DNA of 64,000 nucleotides from Opitutaceae bacterium. GTDB lineage: Bacteria > Verrucomicrobiota > Verrucomicrobiia > Opitutales > Opitutaceae. The stretch covers positions 14,151-78,150 of the forward strand of contig DASXYY010000029.1 of assembly GCA_036502225.1 (NCBI GenBank), given 5' to 3'. A program made the translations under genes and the position numbers. This document shows, one piece after another, positions 15,786 to 28,879 of the stretch. How positions within the stretch are numbered: the stretch's first letter is position 1; each line of letters opens with the position of its first letter. The notes under the pieces were generated by a model. The model ran no database searches. It was given only the letters and a program-made list of their open reading frames with translations, and had not been told where the DNA came from.

Positions 15786-15858
15786 GGTGGAGCGCGTGGT
15801 CCCCACGCGCTTGTCCGCTTTCGACGTCAAACAGCGCGTGGGGACCACGCGCTCCACC
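15786..15858. repeat. type A REP doublet (73-bp form, spacer inverted relative to 7396)
   Basis: GGTGGAGCGCGTGGTCCCCACGCGC-TTGTCCGCTTTCGACGTCAAACA-GCGCGTGGGGACCACGCGCTCCACC. Starts immediately after the purH stop. Confidence 0.9.
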
Positions 15859-15910
15859 TTCATCTCCAATCTTCGGTGGCTTTCGGGCGCAAAACCAGGC
15901 AACGTAGGGC

Positions 15911-17290
15911 ATGTTCGATCCGGTCGAAAAGCTGAAGGAATTCATTCGCTTTCAGAGCGTATCCACCGACTCGCGGTTCAAGGAGGGGATGCAGGGCGCG
16001 CGGGAATTTGTTGCCGCCCTCCTGGCCGGCATGGGGTTCAAGGTCGAGGTGGTGCCGCTCAAGATTCATCCGCTGATCTTTGCCCAGCGCGGAGGCGATC
16101 CATCCTGGCCGCACGTGGTGATTTACGGCCACTACGATGTTCAACCGGCCGATCCCGTGGAGCTATGGAAGACGCCGCCGTTCGAGGCGACGCAGGTTGG
16201 AAACCGCGTGTACGGCCGCGGCGCGGCGGATAACAAGGGGCCGCTTCTGACCAACATCGCCGCCGTCGCGCGGCTGCTGGAAGAGAATCCCCAGGCGCCG
16301 ATCCGCATCACGTTTCTGATCGAGGGCGAGGAGGAAATGGGAAGTCCGAGTTTTCCGAGTTTTCTCACACAATACCAGGATCGTCTCAAGGAGGCGGATT
16401 TCGTCTATTTGTCGGATACCGCTCTGCCGCGGCCCGAGCAGGTCGTGGTCACCTGCGGACTGCGCGGGCTCGCGCTTTTCGACGTGATTGTAACCGGCGC
16501 CAAGATGGATCTGCACTCCGGGCTGCACGGAGGCGTGCTCCGCAGTCCCATTCAGGCGCTGGTGGAGATTCTCTCCACCCTCCACGATGAGAACGGCCGC
16601 ATCAACGTGCCCGGGTTTTACGACGACGTGCTCGACGTGCAGCCCTGGGAGCGCGAACAGCTCACGGCCCTGCGGGTGGACGAGAAGGCATACGCGGAAT
16701 TCCTGGGGATCGATACTTTTTACACGACGAAGGGATTTTCGCCGGCGGAAGCGATCCGCTTCATGCCCACGCTCGAATTCAACGGCATCGGCGGAGGATA
16801 TCAGGGCGAGGGAACGAAGACGGTCATTCCCAGCAGGGCGTTCGTGAAAATCAGCTGCCGGCTGGTGCCGAACCAGAGTCCGGACCGAATCAAGCAATTG
16901 GTCATCGCGGCAATTCGCGAACGCGCCCCCAAGGGCGTGAAGCTGGATTTTGTGGACCAGCACCAGGGCGAGCCTTACGTCGTGGTGCCTCCAGGCCGGC
17001 CCAACACGCCCAAGGATCAATCGCCGGTGCTGGCGCGCGCGTTTGCGGCGACGGAGCGGGCGGTGACGGACGTGTTTGGAAAACCGCCGGTCTATCTGCG
17101 CGAGGGCGGCAGCGTGCCGATCATCGCCGAGATCAAGAAGGTCACGGGCCTCGACTCGATCATGGTCGGGCTATTCCTGCCCGAGGACAATCTGCACGCG
17201 CCGAACGAAGGCTTCAGTCTCGACGTGATGAAGAAGGGCACCGAGGCGGCGTATCGGATGCTTAAGGACGTAGCCGGGGCGGGGGGGTAG
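15911..17290 (+). CDS. M20-family dipeptidase
   Basis: VVIYGHYDVQPADPVELWKTPPFE, GRGAADNKGP and EGEEEMGS are metal/catalytic motifs of M20 peptidases. Confidence 0.85.
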   Translation: MFDPVEKLKEFIRFQSVSTDSRFKEGMQGAREFVAALLAGMGFKVEVVPLKIHPLIFAQRGGDPSWPHVVIYGHYDVQPADPVELWKTPPFEATQVGNRVYGRGAADNKGPLLTNIAAVARLLEENPQAPIRITFLIEGEEEMGSPSFPSFLTQYQDRLKEADFVYLSDTALPRPEQVVVTCGLRGLALFDVIVTGAKMDLHSGLHGGVLRSPIQALVEILSTLHDENGRINVPGFYDDVLDVQPWEREQLTALRVDEKAYAEFLGIDTFYTTKGFSPAEAIRFMPTLEFNGIGGGYQGEGTKTVIPSRAFVKISCRLVPNQSPDRIKQLVIAAIRERAPKGVKLDFVDQHQGEPYVVVPPGRPNTPKDQSPVLARAFAATERAVTDVFGKPPVYLREGGSVPIIAEIKKVTGLDSIMVGLFLPEDNLHAPNEGFSLDVMKKGTEAAYRMLKDVAGAGG

Positions 17291-17311
17291 AAGACAACAA
17301 GACTTCAGGAG

Positions 17312-17390
17312 GGTGGAGCGCATGGTCCCCATGCGCTTAGGCCTCCATCCGCGTTTGACACCAAAGCGCGTGGGACAATGGACACACGCT
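17312..17390. repeat. type A REP doublet (long-spacer form), right arm decayed
   Basis: GGTGGAGCGCATGGTCCCCATGCGCTTAGGCCTCCATCCGCGTTTGACACCAAAGCGCGTGGGACAATGGACACACGCT. Confidence 0.75.
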
Positions 17391-17445
17391 GATCTGCTCG
17401 GCCTCGGGGTTCCGGAACCGCGATAACAGGCTTGCGACGTCGCTC

Positions 17446-17471
17446 AGCGCGTGGGGACCACGCGCTCCACC
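17446..17471. repeat. solo type A REP unit
   Basis: CAGCGCGTGGGGACCACGCGCTCCACC, 12 nt from the stop of the Pal-like gene. Confidence 0.8.
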
Positions 17472-17482
17472 TTCATGAATGC

Positions 17483-18133
17483 TTACGAGGTCGCAGGCGT
17501 CGGTGCCGCGGCGGCCGGAGCCGGAGCCGCACCACCCCCCGGGGCCGGCGCCACGGGCGCGGCGCCGGGCACGAGGAGAATGAACTCGTCGCGGCGGTCG
17601 TGCTTGCGGCCCGCATCGTCGGCGTTCTTTACCGCCTCTTCACTGCCCTTGGAAACCGTGTCGATTTTGTCGGCGCTGACGCCGAGACCGACCAGGAATT
17701 TCTTTGCTTCGTTCGCGCGGCGGTCGCCGAGCGCCAGATTGTATTCCGCCGTGCCGTGCCAGTCGCAGTGACCCTCGACGAGCAGGCGATACTGCGTGTT
17801 CTTGTCGAGGTAGTCCTTGACCGCGCTCAACTTCGGGCGTTCCGCGGATGAAATGCTTGAGCGGTCAAACGCGAAGAAAACGGGTTCGAGCTTGCCGCGG
17901 ATCTGGCCATTGGCATCCGCGTCGGGATCACGCTGGGTCAACCCACCGTTGTCGGGACCGATGTTCGTGGGCGAAAGGCTGCCGGTGCTGTTCGCCGGAT
18001 TCAGATTGCCGCCACCCTGGCCGATCGCCGTCGCGTCGGGGGAAGGACGCACCGGCTTCTTCGGACAGCCGGCCAGAAGCACGGCGACACCGGTCAAGAG
18101 CACAAGGGAGAGCTTGGACGAAGCGAATTTCAT
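17483..18133 (-). CDS. OmpA-family peptidoglycan-associated lipoprotein (Pal-like)
   Basis: Lipobox LLAGC. OmpA_C motifs VFFAFDRSSI and NLALGDRRANEAKKFL. Confidence 0.8.
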   Translation of the reverse strand: MKFASSKLSLVLLTGVAVLLAGCPKKPVRPSPDATAIGQGGGNLNPANSTGSLSPTNIGPDNGGLTQRDPDADANGQIRGKLEPVFFAFDRSSISSAERPKLSAVKDYLDKNTQYRLLVEGHCDWHGTAEYNLALGDRRANEAKKFLVGLGVSADKIDTVSKGSEEAVKNADDAGRKHDRRDEFILLVPGAAPVAPAPGGGAAPAPAAAAPTPATS

Positions 18134-18153
18134 CGGAAAATAAAGGGTAAAGA

Positions 18154-18801
18154 TTAAGAGGCGGACCTGGGCTGAATCAACCCAATATCCACAGCATAGC
18201 GCGTGAGGCTTGCAACATCGTGCAAGTTCAACTTGCGCATGAGATTGGTGCGGTGGTTGTCGACCGTTTTCATGCTGATGCCCAGCTTGGCCGCGATATC
18301 CTTGGTGCTGTGGCTTTCGGCCACCAATTGCAGGATCTCCCGCTCACGATCGGTCAGGAAGTCGGGGGTGCTGCTGGAGCCCGGGTTGGCCACCACGTTT
18401 CGCAGCAGGCCTGCGACCGCGGGGCCGAAATACGTGCCGCCGTTGGCCACGGTTTCCAGGCCCTTTTTGAATTCAAATAGGCCGGCCGTCTTCTCCACGA
18501 AGCCGTGCGCGCCCGCTTCGATCATTTCCCGAACCAGGACCGGGTTTTCGTAGCCCGAAAACACCAATACCCGCATGTTCGGCAGACGTTTGTTCAACCG
18601 GCGGAGGATATCCACTCCATTGAGCCCCGGCAGCTTGGCGTCGAGGACGATGACGTCCGGACGCTTGTCCAGGCAGATCTGCTGCGCCACCTGTCCGTCG
18701 CCGGCCTCGCCCACCAATTCAAACTGCTTATCCAGTCGGAGGATCTCGACGAGCATCTCCCGAATCGCGGTTTGATCTTCGATGATGACGAGGCGTTTCA
18801 T
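18154..18801 (-). CDS. NarL/FixJ-family response regulator (REC + LuxR HTH)
   Basis: ATG at 18801 ([10 protein letters not shown]). Receiver Asp in [14 protein letters not shown]. Lux[47 protein letters not shown]. Confidence 0.85.
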
Positions 18802-18839
18802 TAAGTGCGGACAACAAGCCAAGGCGCCGGGAGGCGGGG

Positions 18840-18911
18840 TGGGTTGGCTGGGATTCGAACCCAGAACCAACGACTTAAAAGGACGCTGCTCTACCATTGA
18901 GCTACCAACCC
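18840..18911 (-). tRNA. tRNA-Lys (anticodon UUU)
   Basis: Reverse complement folds as a cloverleaf: GGGTTGG-TA-GCTC-AATGGTA-GAGC-A-GCGTC-CTTTTAA-GTCGT-TGGTT-CTGGG-TTCGAAT-CCCAG-CCAACCC-A. One T-T mismatch in the anticodon stem. CCA is not encoded. Confidence 0.85.
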
Positions 18912-18985
18912 AAACCTACCAGCCTAAAGGAGGTTAAGTTTCCGGTGGCCTCTGGCGCTCGCAAGCAAAATGAGTAGCCTCCCGC

Positions 18986-20635
18986 ATGGCGAAGTCCAAC
19001 GGCCCGAAACCCGGCAAGGAGAACTGGGATGAGCTTTCGGCCCTTCAATTGTGCGATTTGATCGCGCTGCGGATGGAGCAAAGGGGGGCGCCGGCCCCGG
19101 AAATGGGACTGCTCCGAGCCCGGGTCGAGGAGATGGAGGAACTGCAGGATGAAGCTCGGGGAGCGGTCGAACAGCTGACGGAGGCGGTCGAAAAGCTGCG
19201 GGCCCCGGCTCTTCGGATCGGGACGCTTATTCATGCCATCGGCGAAGACCGGGCTCTGGTTTGCGTCGGCGGCACGGATTACGTCTGCAACGTGGACCCG
19301 GCTCTGGACGAGGATTCCCGGGAGGGCGGCACCCGGGTGCTCCTCAACGAGGCCTTTGCAGTGGCGGATGGCTTCGGTCTGGATCGCAGCGGACCCGTGA
19401 TGAAGGTATCCGAAATCCTGGCGGATGGCCGCCTGCGCGTGGGTTCGGAGTCGGGCATCGGCGATGCGATCGTGGTGCGCTCCGTTCGCATCTCCAAGGA
19501 GAAGCTCAAGGCCGGCCAGGAGGTCCGCCTGGACGCGAATCAGCGGGTGGCGGTGGAAATCATCGGCGCGGGCCGCCGGCTGGATCGCACGTTCACCGCC
19601 GTGGATCCGTTGCCGTGGTCGGCCATCGGAGGCCAGGACGAGGCCGTGCGGGCGATCCGCGATTCGATCGAACTTCCGCTTCTGCACGCCGACTTGTTCA
19701 AGCGATTCCGCCATGCCGTGCCGAAGGGCTTTCTGCTCTATGGGCCGCCGGGCTGCGGCAAGACTCTGCTGGGCCGGGCGGCGGCGCATAATCTGCGGGT
19801 TCAGCTGCGCGAAGCGACGGGCGTCGATCGGCCGGAATTTTTCCTGAGCGTGAAGGGGCCGGAAATCCTGAACATGTGGCTCGGCGAATCCGAGCGGCAG
19901 GTGCGGGACCTGTTCGCGCAATGCCGCGAAAAGGCGGCCGAGGGCAGCCTGGCGTTCCTGTTCATCGACGAGGCGGAATCCATTCTCGGCACGCGCCACG
20001 CGCCGCGCGGCGGAGCGAACATCCTTTCCACCCTTGTGCCGATGTTCTGCACTGAGATGGACGGGCTGCAGCCGCTGCAGAACGTCGTGGTGATTTTGGC
20101 GTCGAACCGCGCGGATCTGATCGATCCGGCGATCCTGAGGCCGGGACGCATTGACCGGAAGATTCGCGTTCGGCGGCCGGACGAGGCGGCGGCCCGCACG
20201 ATTTACGGCATTTATCTGACCGACGAATTGCCGCTGGCGGAGCCGCGGGCCGGCCTGATCGACGCGGCGGTCACCGCCCATTATGCGCGCACCGAGGAGA
20301 ATCGCTTTCTCGACGTCACCTACCGCAGCGGCCGGCGCGAGCATTTGCATCGGGGAGATCTGGCGAGCGGGGCGATCATCGCGGCGATCGTGGAGCGGGC
20401 CAAATCCTTCGCGATCGCGCGTTCGATCGAGGAAAAGCGCGAGTCGCCGATCACGCGGAAGGATCTGACCGAGGCGGTCGCCAAGGAATATGGCGAGAAC
20501 GATCTTTTCCCGCCGAATGACATCACAGAGGACTGGCTCAAGCTGACGGATTTTGAGCCGGAGAATGTGGTGCGGCTGTCGCCGTATCGGGCGAAGGCGG
20601 ATGGCAATGCGAATGATCGACGTTCGGCGGTTTGA
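18986..20635 (+). CDS. mpa: proteasome-associated AAA+ ATPase (Mpa/ARC-like)
   Basis: N-terminal coiled coil, OB-like region, Walker A GPPGCGKT, Walker B LFIDEAES. Lies next to Dop/PafA and 20S subunit genes. The C-terminus is ...NDRRSAV, with no GQYL/HbYX motif. Confidence 0.85.
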   Translation: MAKSNGPKPGKENWDELSALQLCDLIALRMEQRGAPAPEMGLLRARVEEMEELQDEARGAVEQLTEAVEKLRAPALRIGTLIHAIGEDRALVCVGGTDYVCNVDPALDEDSREGGTRVLLNEAFAVADGFGLDRSGPVMKVSEILADGRLRVGSESGIGDAIVVRSVRISKEKLKAGQEVRLDANQRVAVEIIGAGRRLDRTFTAVDPLPWSAIGGQDEAVRAIRDSIELPLLHADLFKRFRHAVPKGFLLYGPPGCGKTLLGRAAAHNLRVQLREATGVDRPEFFLSVKGPEILNMWLGESERQVRDLFAQCREKAAEGSLAFLFIDEAESILGTRHAPRGGANILSTLVPMFCTEMDGLQPLQNVVVILASNRADLIDPAILRPGRIDRKIRVRRPDEAAARTIYGIYLTDELPLAEPRAGLIDAAVTAHYARTEENRFLDVTYRSGRREHLHRGDLASGAIIAAIVERAKSFAIARSIEEKRESPITRKDLTEAVAKEYGENDLFPPNDITEDWLKLTDFEPENVVRLSPYRAKADGNANDRRSAV

Positions 20636-20642
20636 GCGGAAA

Positions 20643-20721
20643 GGTGGAGCGCATGGTCCCCATGCGCTTCTCCGCCAAATGCGGGCCGACGTTTAAGCGC
20701 GTGGGGACCACGCGCTCCACC
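20643..20721. repeat. type A REP doublet (long-spacer form)
   Basis: GGTGGAGCGCATGGTCCCCATGCGC-TTCTCCGCCAAATGCGGGCCGACGTTTAA-GCGCGTGGGGACCACGCGCTCCACC. Occupies 79 of the 99 nt between mpa and dop. Confidence 0.9.
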
Positions 20722-20734
20722 CGCTCGATCTGAC

Positions 20735-22279
20735 ATGCAAATCCAATTTGGCCTGGAAACCGAGATCGGCATCTCGCGGGAGCGCCCGGAGGGCATCGAC
20801 GTCGTGGCCGAATCCATCGCGATGGTGCGCAGCGCCACCGTGCCCGGCGTGCGCGCCAAATGGAACTATGCGCAGGAGGATCCGCACCAGGATGCCCGGG
20901 GGTTTCGGGTGAAGGAGCTCCGGCAGGACACCGACGAAGCGAACTACTTTGCGCAGGACGCCAGCCGTCCGCTCAGCTTTGCGGAAATCAAGAGCGACCT
21001 CGTGCTGAAAAACGGGGCGCGCTTCTACAACGACCACGCCCACCCCGAATATTGCACGCCGGAATGTTCGACGCTGGCCGAACTGCTGGCCCAGGATCAG
21101 GCGGGCGACCGCCTCCTGATGGATTGCGCCGCCGCCGTCAGTGCGAACTCGGACAACCCGGTCCGGCTCTACAAGAACAACACCGATTTCCGCGGCCACA
21201 GCTACGGCTGCCATGAGAATTACCTGCTGCCGCGATCGCTCGAATGGGAAACGCTGGCGGCGGGCGTGCAGGCCTTCCTCGTGACGCGGCAGGTCTTCGG
21301 CGGGGCGGGCAAATACGGCTGGGAGGACGAGGATCGCTTCCTGCAGCCCGGATTCCAGATCGCGCAACGCAGCGATTTCTTCACGGAGCTGCAGAGCGTG
21401 GACACCATGCAGCGTCGTCCCTTGGTGAATACGCGGGACGAGCCGCACGCCGACCCGGCGCGCTTTCGCCGTTTCCATGTGATCATCGGCGACGCGAATC
21501 TTTCCCCGTATGCGACGTACCTGAAAGTGGGGTCGACGGCCCTGGTGCTGGAAGCCCTGGCGGCCGGCGCCCCGCTCGAACGGTTTCCCCGCCTCGCCGA
21601 TCCCGTCGGTGCGCTGCGCAGCATCTCGCGCGATCGCGGCTGGAAATGGGAAGTGACGCTCGCCGGCGGGCGGCGGGCGACGGCGCTGAGCGTCCAACAT
21701 CAATACCTGGAGATCGTTCGCGACTACGTGCCGGGCGCGGGCAACCTGGATTCGGCCCTTCCCTGGCCCGCGCTCTTCGCGCGCTGGAATGGAATTCTTC
21801 ACGACCTGGAGCGCGATCCGCTCTCGACCGCGGACCGGCTCGACTGGTCGGCCAAGCACCAGCTCATCGAGGGTTTTCGGGCAACGGAAGGCCTCGGTGA
21901 GGATGATCCCTGGCTGCGGAGCCTGGATCTTTCGTATCACGAGCTGAACGAAGCAGAGGGGCTGTACTTTGGCCTGCGCGATGCCGGAAGCTTCGTGCAT
22001 CCCTGTCCGGAGATTTTGGATGGGCCGGAAGGGCTGCGAGCCCCCGCCACCACGCGGGCGGCGCTCCGCGGCGGATGCATCGAGAAGTTTGGCCCAATGG
22101 TCCTGGCGGCACAGTGGGACGGAGTGGTGATGAGGACCCAGGCCAAAGGCCACCGCCGCGTGGAGTTGGATCTGCGGGGCGTATTCGCCCCCGAACAGGT
22201 GAGCGCCGGTCTCGCCGCCCTGGGGATTGCCCAGGCGCCGGAAGATCTGCTGACTTTGCCGTTTGCCCGACTCGTCTGA
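20735..22279 (+). CDS. dop: Pup/UBact deamidase-depupylase homologue (Dop-like, Pup-ligase superfamily)
   Basis: N-terminus FGLETEIG; NDHAHPEYCTPEC and YGCHENYLL are carboxylate-amine ligase motifs shared by Dop and PafA. It is 514 aa versus 443 aa for the second copy, consistent with a Dop-loop insertion, and sits after mpa as in actinobacterial loci. Confidence 0.75.
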   Translation: MQIQFGLETEIGISRERPEGIDVVAESIAMVRSATVPGVRAKWNYAQEDPHQDARGFRVKELRQDTDEANYFAQDASRPLSFAEIKSDLVLKNGARFYNDHAHPEYCTPECSTLAELLAQDQAGDRLLMDCAAAVSANSDNPVRLYKNNTDFRGHSYGCHENYLLPRSLEWETLAAGVQAFLVTRQVFGGAGKYGWEDEDRFLQPGFQIAQRSDFFTELQSVDTMQRRPLVNTRDEPHADPARFRRFHVIIGDANLSPYATYLKVGSTALVLEALAAGAPLERFPRLADPVGALRSISRDRGWKWEVTLAGGRRATALSVQHQYLEIVRDYVPGAGNLDSALPWPALFARWNGILHDLERDPLSTADRLDWSAKHQLIEGFRATEGLGEDDPWLRSLDLSYHELNEAEGLYFGLRDAGSFVHPCPEILDGPEGLRAPATTRAALRGGCIEKFGPMVLAAQWDGVVMRTQAKGHRRVELDLRGVFAPEQVSAGLAALGIAQAPEDLLTLPFARLV

Positions 22280-24224
22280 ACTGACTTCGTCTCGGATTTC
22301 CCGCTGGCTGGCGCCGCTGTCGATCGTGGCGGCGGGAGCGATCGCCTATGGCGACAGTCTGCGGGACGCCTTCGTCTACGACGATCGCCTCAGCCTGGTG
22401 GACAACCCGGCGATTCGGCATTTGGGGTCCATTGGGCAGGTTCTCAGTCCGGCCCACGAGGCGGCGACCTTGCAGGGGCGGCCGTTCCTGAGTCTGACGT
22501 TTGCGATCAACTACGCGTTGGGCGGGCTTGATCCGCTGGGATACCATCTGGTCAACCTGGCGATTCATGTGCTGGCGGGCGTGTGCCTGTATTCGCTGGG
22601 GCGGCGCTTTACCGGGATGGGCGCGGCGTGGGCGGTCGCCCTGCTTTGGACGGTGCATCCGCTGCAAACGGAGTCGGTCACGTATATCGTTCAGCGGGCC
22701 GAGTCATTGATGGGCCTCTGTTATTTGGCGACGATCCTGTGCTATTGCCGGTTCGCGGAAACCGGACGGCGTCGCTGGGCGGCGGGCGCAGTGGCCTGTT
22801 GTCTGGCCGGCGTCGGCACCAAGGAGGTGATGGTTTCGGCGCCGGTGATGCTGTGGCTGTTTGATCGAGCGTTCCTGGCGGGAAGCTTTCGGGCGGCGTG
22901 GAAGGCGAGGAAAGGACTGCTGATTGCGCTGGCCGCGACCTGGCTGCCGCTGATCGCGCTGGTGGCCGCGACGGGCGGCAACCGCAGCGGCGCGGTGGGA
23001 TTTGGGCTCAACATCCGGCCGATCGATTATTGGCTCACCCAGGGCGAGGCGGTGCTCCATTACCTGCGACTGGCGGTCTGGCCGTCGCCTCTGGTGCTGG
23101 ACTATGGGAGGTTTGTTTACGCGAATCCGGCGACAGGGATAGTGCGGGTGGCGGCGGTGGCGGGGTTGATTGCGGCGACGATTTGGGCGTGGCGGAAGAA
23201 TGCGAAGGTCGGATTTCTGGGGTGGTTCTTTTTCGCGATTCTCGCGCCGACGAGCCTCTTGCCGGGGACCACGCAGATGATGGCGGAACACCGGATGTAT
23301 TTGGCGTTGGCGCCGGTGCTGGTGCTGCTCGTCGTAGGTGCGGCGTTCTGCCTGGCAAGGTGGAGCGCGTGGTCCCCACGCGCTTGCGGCGTCGAAAACA
23401 GAATAGCCGGGGTCAGCGCCCCCGGCTACAGATGGATAGACCCCCGGCTACAGCCAGGCGCCGTTCTATGCGTTGCGGGTGTATTCATGTGGCTCACCTG
23501 GCGGCGCAACGTCGACTACCGCTCGGACACTGCGATTTGGGCCGATACCGCCGCAAAGCGCCCCGGAAGCGCGATCGCGCATTACAACTTTGGCTACGCG
23601 CTGGGCCCATCGTCCAAGGCCGAGGAAGAGCTCCGCACGTCGATTCGGCTAAATCCCCGTTATATCCAGGCCTATGACGTGCTGGGCTATGATTTGTCGC
23701 TGGAGCCCTCCGCTCGGGCTGAGGCGATCGCGGTTTACCGCCAGGCGCTCGCCATCGATCCGAACGACCTTTCCGCCGAAAACAACCTGGGACAGTTGTA
23801 TTTGAAGTTACCAGCTAATTTCGATGTGGGCGTGGAGTTGCTGACCCGGGCCGCCGAGCAAACGCACGATCCGCAGAACCATTTCGCGCTGGGTGTCATT
23901 CTTTCGAGGCATCCCGGGCACGAGCGTGCGGCGCTGGGGCAATTTGAGGAAGCGGTGCGGCTCGATCCCCGCAACGCCCGGGCGCATTCGAATCTGGCGG
24001 CGAGCCTGGCGGCGGTGGGGGCACCGGATTCCGCCGTCGTTGCGGAATTGCGCGAAGCGGTCCGCCTCGACCCGAAGTTCGTGGAGGCGCGGTTCAATTT
24101 GGCGGTGATGCTGGCGCGGGATCCGGCGCGAAACGCGGAGGCGATCGCGGAGGCGACGGCGGTGCTGGCGATCAAACCGGATTTTGAGCCGGCGCGGGAG
24201 TTGCTGAGTCAGTTGGGACGTTAG
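22263..24224 (+). CDS. polytopic membrane protein with C-terminal TPR repeats (TMTC/PMT_2-like)
   Basis: N-terminus AYGDSLRDAFVYDDRLSLVDNPAIRHLGS followed by about 9 TM segments. C-terminal TPR units (AIAHYNFGYAL..., ARAHSNLAASLA...). TTG start at 22263 overlaps the dop end by 17 nt. Carries an in-frame repeat at 23359-23451. Confidence 0.7.
   Translation: MPDSSELTSSRISRWLAPLSIVAAGAIAYGDSLRDAFVYDDRLSLVDNPAIRHLGSIGQVLSPAHEAATLQGRPFLSLTFAINYALGGLDPLGYHLVNLAIHVLAGVCLYSLGRRFTGMGAAWAVALLWTVHPLQTESVTYIVQRAESLMGLCYLATILCYCRFAETGRRRWAAGAVACCLAGVGTKEVMVSAPVMLWLFDRAFLAGSFRAAWKARKGLLIALAATWLPLIALVAATGGNRSGAVGFGLNIRPIDYWLTQGEAVLHYLRLAVWPSPLVLDYGRFVYANPATGIVRVAAVAGLIAATIWAWRKNAKVGFLGWFFFAILAPTSLLPGTTQMMAEHRMYLALAPVLVLLVVGAAFCLARWSAWSPRACGVENRIAGVSAPGYRWIDPRLQPGAVLCVAGVFMWLTWRRNVDYRSDTAIWADTAAKRPGSAIAHYNFGYALGPSSKAEEELRTSIRLNPRYIQAYDVLGYDLSLEPSARAEAIAVYRQALAIDPNDLSAENNLGQLYLKLPANFDVGVELLTRAAEQTHDPQNHFALGVILSRHPGHERAALGQFEEAVRLDPRNARAHSNLAASLAAVGAPDSAVVAELREAVRLDPKFVEARFNLAVMLARDPARNAEAIAEATAVLAIKPDFEPARELLSQLGR
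23359..23451. repeat. mixed REP element (type A unit + type B unit + extra B tail) inside a CDS
   Basis: GGTGGAGCGCGTGGTCCCCACGCGCTTGCGGCGTCGAAAACAGAATAGCCGGGGTCAGCGCCCCCGGCTAC-AGATGGATAGACCCCCGGCTAC. 93 bp = 31 codons, read as WSAWSPRACGVENRIAGVSAPGYRWIDPRL. Confidence 0.85.
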
Positions 24225-24236
24225 GCATTTTTAAAA

Positions 24237-24315
24237 GGTGGAGCGCGTGGTCCCCACGCGCTTTGACCTCGATCCGCGTTTGGCGCCGAAGCGCATGGGG
24301 ACCATGCGCTCCACC
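24237..24315. repeat. type A REP doublet (long-spacer form)
   Basis: GGTGGAGCGCGTGGTCCCCACGCGC-TTTGACCTCGATCCGCGTTTGGCGCCGAA-GCGCATGGGGACCATGCGCTCCACC. Lies between the TPR-membrane gene and the UBact-like gene. Confidence 0.9.
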
Positions 24316-24396
24316 CAATTCGGCCTTGGCAACATTTTCTGTTCTCGCTCCATTTGCAAAATCGCCGGGGCGCGGCGACACTCGCCACTATCCGCC

Positions 24397-24570
24397 ATGC
24401 CTGACCCTATTCAAAAGCCGCGGCCGGCGGCGCCCGCCCCTGGAGGAGGCGGAGGCGACGGGCCCAAGGAACCCCAGGTCGAAAAGCCGAACACCGAGGA
24501 CTTGCTCAAACGGATGCGCAAGGTCGATCCGGACCAGGCTCGCCGCTATCGGCAGCGCACGGGCGAATGA
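24397..24570 (+). CDS. Pup-like ubiquitin-like modifier, UBact type (57 aa)
   Basis: ATG at 24397 gives MPDPIQKPRPAAPAPGGGGGDGPKEPQVEKPNTEDLLKRMRKVDPDQARRYRQRTGE. It has a disordered Pro/Gly-rich N-terminus, a basic helical C-terminus and a terminal Gly-Glu. Its stop overlaps the prcB start (ATGA). Confidence 0.7.
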   Translation: MPDPIQKPRPAAPAPGGGGGDGPKEPQVEKPNTEDLLKRMRKVDPDQARRYRQRTGE

Positions 24571-25319
24571 ACGGCGATTTCCTGCGGCTGTTGCCCAAGA
24601 ATGCATTCGCGGCCGGGGCGGCCGCTGGGACTGGCGCGGTGCCGCTGGATGCGACGACGGTCTTCGCCTTCCATTGCGCGGACGGCGTGATTGTCGCGGG
24701 CGACCACCGCGCCACGGCGGGAAACGTCGTTTTTTCCGACCGAACCGAAAAGATCATCGAACTCGATCGGCATTCGCTGCTCGCGATCGCCGGCAGTCCG
24801 GCCGTGGCGATCGAGATGGCGCGCACACTGCAGACCACCTTCGAATTCTACCGCCGCAGCCAATTTCAACCGATGAGCCTGCCGGCCAAGATGCGCGCTC
24901 TCTCCCGCCTGTTGCAGGAGAACGTCCCGGCGGCCTTGCAGGGCTTCGGCTTGGTGTCTCCGATCTTTGCCGGCCACGACCTCGCGGCCGGCCGGTCCGC
25001 GATCTACTTTTACGACCCGTTGGGAGCGCAATTCGAAGCGGCGGCGTATGCGGGCTCCGGTTCCGGCTCCGGCAGCATCAAGAGCGTGCTTCACTACCTC
25101 GAGCAGTGGGGAGCGCCGAAGCCGGCCCAGATGACGCTTGCGCAGGCGGTGAATCTGGCGAATCGCCTGCTCATGACCGCGGCCGAATTCGACACGGCCA
25201 CGGGAGGCGTCGATCCGGCCGGAGGCGATTTCGCCACGGTCAAGCTGCTCGACGCCCACGGCGTCCGATCCTTCGGGGCCGATGAGCAGCAAAAATTCTG
25301 GATGGAGGCGAGCCGATGA
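24567..25319 (+). CDS. prcB: 20S proteasome beta subunit
   Basis: Propeptide followed by catalytic Thr in DATTVFAFHCADGVIVAGDHRATAG. Ntn-hydrolase pattern. ATGA coupling on both sides. Confidence 0.85.
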   Translation: MNGDFLRLLPKNAFAAGAAAGTGAVPLDATTVFAFHCADGVIVAGDHRATAGNVVFSDRTEKIIELDRHSLLAIAGSPAVAIEMARTLQTTFEFYRRSQFQPMSLPAKMRALSRLLQENVPAALQGFGLVSPIFAGHDLAAGRSAIYFYDPLGAQFEAAAYAGSGSGSGSIKSVLHYLEQWGAPKPAQMTLAQAVNLANRLLMTAAEFDTATGGVDPAGGDFATVKLLDAHGVRSFGADEQQKFWMEASR

Positions 25320-26050
25320 CGGACGAACCCTACCGCTGGCTCGAGGCCATTGCGAACCGCCGCGAGTACATTCGCGACCAGCTCAAGGGGGCTTCGCCCG
25401 TGTTCGCCTTTTCCCGTCGCGAGGGCGTCGTGGTCGTGGGAGTGGGCACCGGCCAGTCCAAAGTCTTTGAAATCTACGACCGCCACGCCTTGGGGGCGCT
25501 GGGGCACCCGGTGGACATCGAAAAGATCCGGCAATCGCTGATCGAGGCGGCTCACCTGGAGGGATTCACTCGCGCGCCCGAGGATGTGACCGTGCGCCGG
25601 ATGCTGAATTTTGCGTTGGGGCCTGCGCTCAAGAACGCTTTCGAGCAGGTCCTCGCGGCCCCGCTGATTGTGGAAGGATTGTTGGTCGAAGCGGGGCCGG
25701 AACCATCCTCGGATGTGCTGGCCGCTTTTCGCCACGACGGCACCCACGCGTTTGCCACCGGCGTGGCGGTTTCCTTTCCGAACGCGGATCGGGCGGCGGC
25801 GGCGGCCGCCTGGCTCAAATCGCAGCTTTCGGAGACCACCGCGCTGCGCGAGGTGGTGCGGGCGGCGGTGACGGCGAGCCGGACCTTGGCCGCCGACGGA
25901 GCCGGCCGGGCCGACGCGCCCTTTCCGGAGCGCCCGGACGCCGCGATCGAGCGGCCCGACGGGCGCGTAGTGGAGGCCGCGGTGCTTGAACGCGCGGGCG
26001 TGGGACGGGCCCGCTATCGCGCGCTCGACGGCGGCGACTATGCGGGCTAA
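25316..26050 (+). CDS. prcA: 20S proteasome alpha subunit
   Basis: 244 aa directly after prcB with no catalytic N-terminal Thr. Core VFAFSRREGVVVVGV...IYDRHALGALGHPVDIEKIR resembles a proteasome alpha fold. Confidence 0.8.
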   Translation: MTDEPYRWLEAIANRREYIRDQLKGASPVFAFSRREGVVVVGVGTGQSKVFEIYDRHALGALGHPVDIEKIRQSLIEAAHLEGFTRAPEDVTVRRMLNFALGPALKNAFEQVLAAPLIVEGLLVEAGPEPSSDVLAAFRHDGTHAFATGVAVSFPNADRAAAAAAWLKSQLSETTALREVVRAAVTASRTLAADGAGRADAPFPERPDAAIERPDGRVVEAAVLERAGVGRARYRALDGGDYAG

Positions 26051-27371
26051 AGGGCGCGGCGCGGCCCGACCGCGTATCACCGGATTGGAGACGGAGTATG
26101 GCTGCCTGACGGCCACCCCGGGCCTGGCGGCCAAGGTGGTGCCGCGGATCCGCGATTGGGTGTTTGCGAACGACCGCTTCGGCCTGCTCGACCGCCACGA
26201 CCGCGGCTGGGACGAGCCCGCCGGCAATGGCGGATTCCTGTTCAATGGCGGTCGGCTCTACGTGGACATGGGTCATGTCGAGTACTGCACCGCGGAGTGC
26301 GCCACGCTGCATGACCTCCTGGTGCGCGATCGCGCCGGGGACCGCCTGCTCCTGACCGGACTGCGGGAACTGGGGCTTGCCGAAAACGTTCAGTTCATCC
26401 GCAACAACATCGACCACCGTTCCGGCGCCACCTTCGGCTGCCACGAGAACTACGCCCTGCTGCGCAACGCACCCTTTACCGATGAGAATCTGCTCAGCCT
26501 GCTGGCGTTCATGACGCTGCGGGTGCTGTTCACGGGCAGCGGCCGGGTGGGGGGAGGCGTGCCCTTCCAGATCAGCCAACGCGCCGACTACATCGAAAAC
26601 GACTTCTTTGAGTGGGTGCAGCAGAGCCGGGCCATCATCAACACCCGCGATGAGCCGCTGGCGGACCCCCGACGCTACCGGCGGTTGCACCTGCTGCACG
26701 GAGACACCCACGTGCTGCCGTCGGCCCTTTTTCTCAAGGTCGGTGCGACGCGGCTGGTGCTCGACTTGCTCGAGGCCGACGGAATGCCGCCGGTGGCCCT
26801 CCAGGAAGCCGTCGTCAGCCTTCGTGAGCTTTCGCATCAGCCGGAGCCGCCTTGGCGCGTCACGTTGGCGTCCGGGAACGAGGGGGATGCGGTGGAACTC
26901 TTGAGCCAGTTCCGTGAGGCCTGCGCCCAGCGCTTTGTCGGTCGCGATCCGGAAACGGACGCCGTGTTGGACCTATGGCGCCGCGTGGAGGCAGGATTGG
27001 CCGCCAAGCTCGATTCGCTGGTCGGCTTGGTCGACTGGGTGACGAAGCTGCACGCACTGAACACGTTCCGCGAAAGCGAGAAACTGGCCTGGGATGACCC
27101 CTGGCTGGAGGCCCAGGACCTCGAATTCCATCAGGTCGACCCGGAACGCAGTCTCGGTTTGGCGTTGGCCGATCTGAACGGTCCTTGGGGCGCCCAACTG
27201 GAAGCGCCGGAGGCACTCACGGAACCGCCCGCTGACACCCGGGCGGCCCGCCGGTCGGCCCTGATGCGACGTTTGGTTGCATCCGGGGGCCGCGGCGTGG
27301 TCGACTGGCATTATGTTGTAGAGGAAGGGAAGGAGCCAACCCCCCTTTTAGACCCCTATCAGAGTTCATAA
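26040..27371 (+). CDS. pafA: Pup/UBact ligase homologue (PafA-like)
   Basis: ATG at 26040 overlaps the prcA stop. RITGLETEYGCL N-terminus, MGHVEYCTAEC and FGCHENYAL motifs. 443 aa, the shorter paralogue. Confidence 0.75.
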   Translation: MRAKGRGAARPRITGLETEYGCLTATPGLAAKVVPRIRDWVFANDRFGLLDRHDRGWDEPAGNGGFLFNGGRLYVDMGHVEYCTAECATLHDLLVRDRAGDRLLLTGLRELGLAENVQFIRNNIDHRSGATFGCHENYALLRNAPFTDENLLSLLAFMTLRVLFTGSGRVGGGVPFQISQRADYIENDFFEWVQQSRAIINTRDEPLADPRRYRRLHLLHGDTHVLPSALFLKVGATRLVLDLLEADGMPPVALQEAVVSLRELSHQPEPPWRVTLASGNEGDAVELLSQFREACAQRFVGRDPETDAVLDLWRRVEAGLAAKLDSLVGLVDWVTKLHALNTFRESEKLAWDDPWLEAQDLEFHQVDPERSLGLALADLNGPWGAQLEAPEALTEPPADTRAARRSALMRRLVASGGRGVVDWHYVVEEGKEPTPLLDPYQSS

Positions 27372-27487
27372 TCGACTTGGGTATCAATTAGATGAAACTT
27401 ACTGATTCGTTGGGCGTCAGTGCCTCCTCAGCCGTCCACTTCGTGGGAACAATTCAAAAATACGCCCATCAGACCGAGGTAGATCGT

Positions 27488-28090
27488 ATGTCTACAAAGG
27501 CTCAGGAAGTTGCGTTTGACCGGGTCCTAGTCGACCGCTTCAAGAGCGGCGATGCGGCCGCGTTCGACGAGATGGTCAGCCGCTATTGGAACCGGATATA
27601 CTCCATGGTTCACCAGCTGCTCCGCAACCCCCAGGATGCCGAAGAAGTGACCCAGGATGCGTTTATTCGTGCCCACCGGGGTTTGGTGAACTTCCGGGGT
27701 GAGTCCGCCTTTTCGACCTGGCTGTACCAAATCGCGACCAATCTGGCCCGCAATCGGTATTGGTACTGGTGGCGGCGCCGCCGGGACAAGTCGGTATCGA
27801 TCGACGCGCCGGTCGGACCGGACAACGATTTGACCCTGGCCGAAATCATTCCAGCGGAGGTCGAGACTCCGGATGACATCACCGTCACCCAGGAGTTCAT
27901 CAATCGGATTGGAAGCGGTATGGAACGTCTGGGCGCGAAGCACCGCGAAATCCTGATCCTGCGCAATGTTAAAAACCTTACCTATGAGGAGATCGCCGGC
28001 ATCCTCGGCATCTCCATTGGCACCGTAAAAAGCCGGATCGCTCGCGCCCGTGAGGCACTGCGGGCGAAGCTCGGCGAAGACTTCAAATGA
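27488..28090 (+). CDS. ECF-type RNA polymerase sigma-70 factor
   Basis: Region 2 DAEEVTQDAFIRAHRGL, region 4 LTYEEIAGILGISIGTVKSRIARAREAL. ATG at 27488 is preferred over the ORF-track start at 27392. Confidence 0.85.
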   Translation: MSTKAQEVAFDRVLVDRFKSGDAAAFDEMVSRYWNRIYSMVHQLLRNPQDAEEVTQDAFIRAHRGLVNFRGESAFSTWLYQIATNLARNRYWYWWRRRRDKSVSIDAPVGPDNDLTLAEIIPAEVETPDDITVTQEFINRIGSGMERLGAKHREILILRNVKNLTYEEIAGILGISIGTVKSRIARAREALRAKLGEDFK

Positions 28091-28785: not shown

Positions 28786-28798
28786 GCGCCGATTCCGA

Positions 28799-28877
28799 GG
28801 TGGAGCGCATGGTCCCCATGCGCTTTGACGTTCGCCCGCGTTTGACGCCGAAGCGCGTGGGGACCACGCGCTCCACC
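28799..28877. repeat. type A REP doublet (long-spacer form)
   Basis: GGTGGAGCGCATGGTCCCCATGCGC-TTTGACGTTCGCCCGCGTTTGACGCCGAA-GCGCGTGGGGACCACGCGCTCCACC. Lies between the convergent anti-sigma and ruvA genes. Confidence 0.9.
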
Positions 28878-28879
28878 CG

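Follow-up and report, generated by a model that had tools for sequence, protein, structure and literature searches.

UBact is, to our knowledge, the sole ubiquitin-like degradation tag that has been proposed for Gram-negative bacteria, and it is compared here with the Pup tag of the Pup-proteasome system in Mycobacterium tuberculosis and its actinobacterial relatives. Pup-like systems outside the actinobacteria were first noted in verrucomicrobia by Iyer, Burroughs and Aravind in 2008 (PMC2588565), and the Gram-negative UBact loci are those of Lehmann et al. 2017 (BBRC 483:946), a paper that a preliminary description of the present DNA had cited and whose existence is confirmed through a citing source. 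Known since 2008 and 2017, the system is already catalogued, is common in Verrucomicrobiota and is covered by curated Pfam and NCBIfam models. The subject of this report is positions 18986-27371 of a stretch of 64,000 nucleotides (nt) of DNA from an Opitutaceae bacterium (contig DASXYY010000029.1), the whole of which is called the window. The region is very probably an intact locus of the UBact-proteasome system, which is the homolog in Gram-negative bacteria of the Pup-proteasome system of actinobacteria.

Gene content and order of the locus

Seven open reading frames (ORFs) had been claimed for 18986-27371, and all of them are present at these positions, on the + strand, in the ORF list. Together with two palindromic elements of the repetitive extragenic palindromic (REP) type, they make up the following arrangement, in which the gene names mpa, dop, prcB, prcA and pafA are used for the counterparts of the actinobacterial genes.

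18986-20635, + strand: AAA+ ATPase of the Mpa/ARC type (mpa), 549 aa, with GPPGCGKT and FIDEAES
20642-20722, no strand: REP-like palindromic element between mpa and dop, inside the operon and outside the system proper
20735-22279, + strand: Dop-type enzyme (dop), 514 aa, Pup_ligase PF03136
22263-24224, + strand: protein with a PMT_2 (GT39-like) membrane domain and TPR repeats, 653 aa, TTG start
24236-24316, no strand: REP-like palindromic element between the TPR gene and UBact
24397-24570, + strand: UBact, 57 aa, C-terminus RQRTGE
24567-25319, + strand: 20S proteasome beta subunit (prcB), 250 aa, with ...DA|TTVFAF at the propeptide boundary
25316-26050, + strand: 20S proteasome alpha subunit (prcA), divergent bacterial type, 244 aa
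26040-27371, + strand: PafA-type enzyme (pafA), predicted UBact-protein ligase, 443 aa, with RITGLETEYG

The identities of these genes, their order and their catalytic residues, together with the conservation of these features, were observed directly. The six ORFs of the system are intact, all catalytic residues are in place and two ATGA couplings are kept. Three such overlaps had been claimed; those of UBact with prcB and of prcB with prcA are indeed ATGA, whereas the overlap of prcA with pafA is 11 nt long (ATGCGGGCTAA), with the ATG of pafA at 26040 and the TAA stop of prcA at 26048-26050. Among proteins of solved structure, the best relatives of the five large proteins are those of the Pup system, namely Mpa, Dop, PafA, PrcB and PrcA. 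The preliminary description had called the system complete and probably functional; its completeness is borne out, and that it functions is argued from conservation. None of the three results that this description had named as refuting it was obtained: both ligase-fold ORFs match Pup_ligase, the beta subunit has an aligned catalytic Thr, and the small ORF keeps its position in related genomes.

When one genome per species was scanned, 590 stretches with relatives of the Dop-type protein were found, and the best 80 of these (labelled L001-L080) were compared as related loci. Almost all come from Verrucomicrobiota, the nearest being an Opitutaceae metagenome-assembled genome (MAG) with 75% identity. 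The earlier guess at a genome of the Planctomycetes-Verrucomicrobia-Chlamydiae type agrees with these nearest loci and with a protein at NCBI identical to the PafA-type enzyme, which belongs to an Opitutaceae MAG that has already been annotated, under the name 'proteasome accessory factor PafA2 family protein'. The window itself recurs without a difference within a JGI metagenome contig of 98 kb (sample 3300036780), and the same sequence occurs in contigs of two further JGI samples and of one Logan run.

The order mpa-dop-UBact-prcB-prcA-pafA is found in 40 of the 80 related loci, the remainder being mostly contig-truncated versions of the same order. Three loci (L068, L074 and L080) carry mpa downstream of pafA, and about 10 of the 80 have mpa-dop without adjoining UBact-prcB-prcA-pafA, which suggests that the system consists of two movable modules. 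In L030, L042, L057, L065, L072 and L078, no UBact-prcB-prcA-pafA was seen within 4-10 kb after mpa-dop. The TPR gene and the REP-like hairpins of the window sit at the natural joint of the two modules.

The UBact tag

UBact, a small modifier, is rich in Pro and Gly and has a basic C-terminal half. The 57-aa protein matches the UBact models PF20513 with 80.5 bits (cutoff 27.8) and NF033388 with 84.4 bits (cutoff 35), and gives no match to the Pup model PF05639 even at E<=10. In an hhalign comparison there is a weak alignment (probability 42%) of the last 27 residues of UBact to the C-terminus of M. tuberculosis Pup. Homology of UBact to Pup is plausible on this profile evidence. The ORF is well conserved in its position, UBact lying directly 5' of prcB in 67 of the 80 related loci, and 135 UBact clusters were recovered from 1.84 billion cluster representatives, many of them over-called at the N-terminus. 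The JGI gene call at 24238-24570 likewise makes UBact 110 aa long, with a GTG start and a reading frame running through the REP-like element; the ortholog alignment identifies the ATG of the 57-aa form as the real start.

The C-terminus RQRTG[QE] is present in 65 of 66 UBact orthologs and ends in Gln in 49 and in Glu in 16 of them. A Gly-Gly-Gln/Glu terminus of the Pup type was not found, since UBact ends in Thr-Gly-Glu and its orthologs in TGQ or TGE. In the window the last residue (24565-24570) is Glu, and in L001, the nearest relative in GTDB, it is Gln. Because of its C-terminal Glu, the tag of the window should be ready for ligation with no need of deamidation. The alternation of Gln and Glu, which is also seen in Pup, points to the terminal gamma-carboxylate as the ligation point and to the Dop-type enzyme as the one that deamidates the Gln forms; by analogy with Pup, it argues that the polymorphism would make sense only with gamma-carboxylate ligation and a deamidase. 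Covalent conjugation of UBact to substrate lysines via the C-terminal Glu is likewise predicted by analogy with Pup. The C-terminal 30 residues of UBact carry a net charge of +3 (ortholog mean +4).

Proteasome subunits and the ATPase

The beta subunit matches PF00227 with 96.9 bits and stays below the cutoff of TIGR03690 (137.7 bits against 191.9). It has a 29-aa propeptide, and Thr30 is the catalytic Thr1: the mature beta chains of Rhodococcus and M. tuberculosis in the PDB align from residue 30 of the query, so that Thr30 falls on residue 1 of the mature actinobacterial chains. In 65 orthologs, T1, T2, D17 and K33 do not vary. The alpha subunit is more divergent, with no match to PF00227 or to any other Pfam model and with 53.8 bits against TIGR03691 (cutoff 139). 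A profile built from 24 alpha sequences retrieved from the PDB only actinobacterial alpha subunits, those of Rhodococcus and M. tuberculosis, with E=1.4e-14 over 177-212 residues. Lys49 of the alpha subunit, in the motif ...SKVFEIYDR, is invariant; it presumably corresponds to Lys52 of M. tuberculosis, the residue that binds the carboxylate of the docking tail.

The ATPase matches the Pfam AAA domain together with both proteasomal OB domains (Prot_ATP_ID_OB_N and Prot_ATP_ID_OB_C), and is built of an acidic N-terminal coiled coil, two OB domains, the AAA module and a C-terminal beta-grasp. Its best matches in the PDB are those of M. tuberculosis Mpa (7ljf and 7px9, 296 bits), residues 42-531 aligning with Mpa 65-584, and its score against TIGR03689 is 395.8 bits, below the equivalog cutoff of 504.75. 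The window protein and 58 orthologs, nearly all from Verrucomicrobiota, were aligned as a set of 59 sequences, in which the Walker A and Walker B motifs, the pore loop W-[LV]-G (aromatic-hydrophobic-Gly) and the Arg-finger region are invariant. The coiled coil has a charge of -5, with an ortholog mean of -2.5 and about +1 in the aligned segment of Mpa. The charges of tag and receptor are thus complementary, with +3 in the C-terminal 30 residues of UBact and -5 in the coiled coil of the ATPase.

The C-terminal tail of the ATPase differs from that of Mpa, whose binding to the 20S core relies on a C-terminal GQYL motif with the penultimate Tyr as the main determinant (PMC8755798). A motif resembling GQYL or HbYX is absent from all 59 sequences, the penultimate residue being I, A, V, S, T or M and never Tyr. 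The tail of the window protein (20581-20635) ends in RRSAV and is preceded by a conserved ...NVVRL.PYR segment. Every one of the 59 sequences has Val or Ile as its last residue, and in most of them Gly, Ser or Ala stands in the antepenultimate position. The simplest reading of this alignment is a docking tail that would be conserved and different from that of Mpa, of the form small-x-Val/Ile.

The missing Tyr bears on the strongest alternative to an intact degradation pathway, namely that tagging works mainly as reversible regulation and not as a degradation signal, or that the complex of the ATPase with the 20S core does not form; pupylation in Corynebacterium, which proceeds without a proteasome, would be the precedent. 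The loss of the docking Tyr from the window protein and its 58 orthologs speaks for it, as does the separability of the modules, with mpa-dop standing alone in about 10 of the 80 related loci. However, UBact, prcB and prcA are coupled translationally by ATGA overlaps and adjoin one another in nearly all relatives, and the Val or Ile at the end of every ATPase, taken together with the invariant Lys49 of the alpha subunit, suggests a docking tail that is conserved in another form. We consider this alternative improbable, though it keeps more weight than any other.

Dop-type and PafA-type enzymes

Both ligase-fold proteins match Pup_ligase PF03136 over their full length, the 514-aa one with 456.4 bits and the 443-aa one with 335.6 bits. 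Each has the GhExE motif and the catalytic Asp, as FGLETEIG and D100 in the former and as TGLETEYG and D76 in the latter, all invariant or almost invariant in the orthologs. For the assignment of roles, 79 verrucomicrobial proteins of the Dop type and 54 of the PafA type were aligned with PDB references and compared at the discriminating residues of Hecht et al. (PMC7947786, Table 1). On this evidence and that given below, the 443-aa protein can be named as the ligase, and the 514-aa protein as the deconjugase, with high confidence.

The 514-aa protein scores 414 bits against TIGR03688 (Dop) and 314 bits against TIGR03686 (PafA), the former being below the Dop equivalog cutoff of 492.3 bits of a model trained on actinobacteria, and in the PDB search it matches Dop 4b0r with 327 bits as against 218 bits for PafA. 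It contains a Dop-loop, RAKWNYAQEDPHQDARGF, with W-N-Y...DARGF; the signature W-x-Y...DARGF has been described as highly conserved (PMC9556782). The Dop-specific residues S27, V31, H95, A96, P103 and F208 occur in 79 of 79 Dop-type orthologs. An AlphaFold2 (AF2) model has a mean predicted local distance difference test (pLDDT) score of 83.5 and shows the Dop-loop as disordered. By analogy with Dop, the enzyme is predicted to be a de-UBactylase (isopeptidase), and also a deamidase in the relatives whose tag ends in Gln.

The clade of the 443-aa protein lacks the Dop-loop and has the PafA-type F54 in 54 of 54 and D439 in 53 of 54 sequences, and the protein aligns end to end with PafA of C. glutamicum, including the loop-less N-terminus and the C-terminal L.DP[FY], which reads ...LLDPYQSS in the window. 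The NCBI record of the protein is 428 aa long and starts 15 codons 3' of the ATG (window 26040-26087), which cuts into the conserved first strand RITGLETEYG; the start of the 443-aa form agrees better with the PafA alignment. The scores lean slightly the other way, to Dop: 243.9 bits against TIGR03688 as compared with 232.7 bits against TIGR03686 (equivalog cutoff 551.3 bits), and 208 bits to Dop as compared with 169 bits to PafA in the PDB search. The catalytic loop D-V-G-S-H of PafA, with its Val65 insertion, was not found, the loop of the 443-aa protein being D-M-G-H and one residue shorter. The alpha-loop, which is reported to be the element that discriminates PafA from Dop (PMC7947786), reads YIENDFFEWVQQS and is like that of neither enzyme, both conserved Thr residues being gone. 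Of the PafA alpha-helix residues H188, W190, E191, G192, S194, S195, A196, R199 and S200, the equivalent of S200 alone matches in the window protein, and at position 15 of the list in PMC7947786 a Pro of the Dop type is found in 46 of 54 PafA-type orthologs. The AF2 model of the 443-aa protein (pLDDT 86.3) has a helix at 187-196 in the alpha-loop, and that of the 514-aa protein a short helix and coil, with pLDDT below 50 in both loops; the two models are weakly consistent with a split into ligase and hydrolase and are not decisive. Foldseek placed the 443-aa model at TM-scores of 0.81-0.83 to Dop and PafA structures alike.

It follows from these features that the roles might be other than assigned, the 514-aa protein being the ligase or a bifunctional enzyme and the 443-aa protein having another activity. 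Such an exchange would accommodate the marginally Dop-like scores of the 443-aa protein, its lack of the Val65 insertion and of most PafA alpha-helix residues, the Dop-type Pro of its orthologs and the indifference of Foldseek, but it is very unlikely in view of the distribution of the positive markers: the Dop-loop with W-x-Y...DARGF is confined to the 514-aa protein, and F54, D439 and L.DP[FY] are confined to the 443-aa clade. A neighbour-joining tree, computed by that method alone and with three actinobacterial references, a single PafA among them, separates {actinobacterial Dop + 514-aa clade} from {PafA + 443-aa clade} with 92% bootstrap support, and each enzyme occupies the gene position of actinobacterial dop or pafA, respectively. 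The labels Dop-like and PafA-like of the preliminary description are therefore backed by published discriminating residues and a bootstrapped tree.

Proposed mode of action

Every biochemical step of the following scheme is modelled on the Pup system by homology. UBact would be made with a C-terminal Glu, so that deamidation would be unnecessary. The PafA-type enzyme (26040-27371) would phosphorylate the gamma-carboxylate of this Glu with ATP and then link the Glu through an isopeptide bond to lysine residues of its targets. With its acidic coiled coils, a hexameric ATPase of the Mpa type would grip UBact by the basic C-terminal half; it would pull the disordered, Pro/Gly-rich N-terminus of the tag through the OB rings and past the W-L-G pore loops, and would unfold the target. 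The target would enter the 20S core formed by the alpha (25316-26050) and beta (24567-25319) subunits, where it would be cleaved by Thr1 of the autoprocessed beta subunit. The Dop-type enzyme (20735-22279) would remove the tag, and in the three quarters of relatives with a Gln-ending UBact it would also deamidate the tag first.

Elements interrupting the operon

The gene between dop and UBact (1962 nt) encodes a protein that matches Pfam PMT_2 and several TPR models; its family comprises over 7000 full-length homologs, membrane proteins of PMT_2-plus-TPR architecture. In none of the 80 related loci are dop and UBact separated by a TPR gene, and the gap from one to the other, 2118 nt in the window, has a median of 39 nt in the relatives. 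The TPR gene is present in the locus in four assemblies, three from JGI samples and one from a Logan run. A single REP arm at 23357-23385 lies in frame within its ORF, between the membrane and the TPR domains, and a Logan contig assembled with k=31 ends exactly at this arm. That the ORF is an assembly chimera formed at this half REP copy was considered and rejected, as three JGI assemblies read through it identically and thousands of homologs have the same architecture.

The REP-like elements are about 80 nt long and consist of two inverted 27-nt arms (GGTGGAGCGCGTGGTCCCCACGCGCTT), each a small hairpin, about 25 nt apart. With up to 3 mismatches allowed, the window has 25 occurrences of the 21-nt arm core, where 0.02 would be expected. 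The element between mpa and dop (20642-20722, family D1/I1) has a predicted RNA fold of -62.6 kcal/mol (z = -7.0), and that between the TPR gene and UBact (24236-24316) one of -61.8 kcal/mol (z = -6.6). Other copies in the window are as follows.

28798-28878, 15786-15863 and 17311-17473: further REP-like copies
5919, 6689, 7445, 10062, 36465, 44643, 47173 and 58963, for example: about 15 additional arm copies

The element is absent from the 80 related loci and from L088, the contig described next, and is for this reason taken to be specific to the strain or species.

L088 is a Logan contig of 5049 nt (SRR11836411) from a close relative, whose flanking proteins are 85-95% identical to those of the window. 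It corresponds to window positions 16130-18928, 22227-24224 and 27365-27568, and contains in this order the M20 peptidase, OmpA, the response regulator, tRNA-Lys, a 53-nt remnant of the 3' end of dop, the TPR gene, the 3'-terminal 7 nt of pafA and the ECF (extracytoplasmic function) sigma factor. Missing are window positions 18929-22226, with mpa and most of dop, and about 24225-27364, with UBact-prcB-prcA-pafA. The dop remnant indicates that the common ancestor already had dop beside the TPR gene. L088 then lost both halves of the system by two deletions and kept the TPR gene, which makes this gene an independent passenger.

From the same facts it might be argued that the locus of the window is itself a decaying remnant, its operon broken up by REP hairpins and an inserted gene so that it would not be expressed as a whole. 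The cluster does contain two hairpins of about -62 kcal/mol and an insertion of 2 kb, a sister lineage has deleted the system, and no sigma-70-like promoter was found 5' of UBact in consensus scans for promoters and terminators, which gave no more hits than shuffled background and, as regards promoters, are uncalibrated for Verrucomicrobiota. Against decay, the six ORFs are open throughout, with every catalytic residue and both ATGA couplings kept, and REP elements inside operons are commonly tolerated. A decaying locus is accordingly a remote prospect. Still less credible is a role of the PMT_2/TPR protein as a functional component, for instance a membrane anchor or substrate adaptor, even though Plesiocystis and Rhodopirellula are reported to have a membrane-protein gene linked to their Pup and Pup-ligase genes (Iyer et al., PMC2588565) and the TPR gene, whose TTG start and the dop stop overlap by 17 nt, has its place in the operon in each of four independent assemblies, since this gene is absent from the locus in 80 of 80 related genomes, belongs to a very large multi-paralog family of housekeeping type, and was kept beside the 53-nt dop remnant when L088 deleted both halves of the UBact system. 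The preliminary description had counted this gene within the locus; its absence from the related loci and its retention alone in L088 place it outside the system.

Several of these findings tell against a working UBact-proteasome system and have to be set beside its intact genes. All five large proteins score below the equivalog cutoffs of NCBIfam, which are trained on actinobacteria, and such scores would fit a distinct, non-actinobacterial branch of each family. The ATPases have no Tyr-containing docking motif, and the PafA-type enzyme is marginally closer to Dop both in profile scores and in the sequence search of the PDB, with an alpha-loop resembling neither enzyme and modelled by AF2 with little confidence. 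The operon is interrupted by a foreign gene of 2 kb and a stable REP hairpin, and L088 has discarded the whole system, which is therefore dispensable. Finally, literature searches, which within the library used turned up no paper naming UBact in its title or abstract, returned citations of UBact systems and no experimental work on any of them, in agreement with the earlier statement that they have essentially no biochemical characterisation; all of the biochemistry hence rests on analogy.

Flanking region

The genes around the locus, encoding PurH, the M20 peptidase, OmpA, the response regulator, the ECF sigma factor and RuvA, were considered as parts of the system and rejected, because they show no synteny with the locus in other genomes. 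The sole match in an Rfam scan was to tRNA, a tRNA-Lys (anticodon UUU) at 18837-18912 on the - strand, 74 nt upstream of the ATPase start. A mechanically called ORF of 247 aa (18154-18897) extends into this tRNA, and the JGI call starts the response-regulator gene at 18801, which is more likely to be its start than 18897.

Comparison with known systems

The Tyr-less docking tail, the inverted charges and the divergent alpha-loop of the ligase are features of the whole verrucomicrobial family and not of the window. Taken together they could mean that verrucomicrobial UBact is a charge-inverted variant of Pup, with a basic tag and an acidic coiled coil, that its ATPase, independent of an HbYX-type motif, docks on the 20S alpha ring through a conserved aliphatic C-terminal residue (small-x-Val/Ile) instead of the penultimate Tyr of Mpa, PAN and eukaryotic Rpt, and that the alpha-loop of its ligase is unrelated in sequence to that of PafA; we regard this as a tentative proposal, with somewhat less than an even chance of being right. 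If it is true, the Glu-ending tag would make this locus a convenient template for the reconstitution of a second, mechanistically distinct tag-and-degrade pathway in bacteria. Any intact UBact locus is a possible starting point for reconstitution, and the window adds little beyond the hundreds of loci in databases. Three observations made across genomes may be of use: the alternation of Gln and Glu at the end of the tag, which supports a shared gamma-carboxylate chemistry and a deamidase role of the Dop type; the lack of a Tyr docking motif throughout the 58 sampled ATPase orthologs; and the clean loss of both halves in a close relative, by which the system is dispensable and modular.

With the Gram-negative UBact loci (PF20513, NF033388; Lehmann et al. 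2017) the window shares the tag family, the RQRTG[EQ] end, and the six genes and their order as found in most Verrucomicrobiota; it differs from them by the PMT_2/TPR gene between dop and UBact and by REP-like hairpins in two intergenic regions. With the Pup-proteasome system of M. tuberculosis and related actinobacteria it has in common the gene order, the best relatives of all five large proteins, the Dop-loop motif, GhExE with the catalytic Asp, Thr1/Asp17/Lys33, the pore loop and the Gln/Glu alternation of the tag. In contrast to Pup, UBact is missed by the Pup model, ends in TGE and not in GGQ or GGE, and is basic where Pup is strongly acidic. The ATPase differs from Mpa in its acidic coiled coil and in a small-x-[VI] tail in place of GQYL, and the PafA-type enzyme from actinobacterial PafA in having DMGH, one residue shorter, for DVGSH and an alpha-loop of unrelated sequence; all of the large proteins fall under the equivalog cutoffs trained on actinobacteria. 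Proteasome-free pupylation, as in Corynebacterium and in the membrane-linked genes of Plesiocystis and Rhodopirellula (PMC2588565), resembles the window in having a small Glu-ending tag that is ligated directly, whereas the window in addition has the ATPase and the 20S subunits, the latter coupled translationally to the tag gene.

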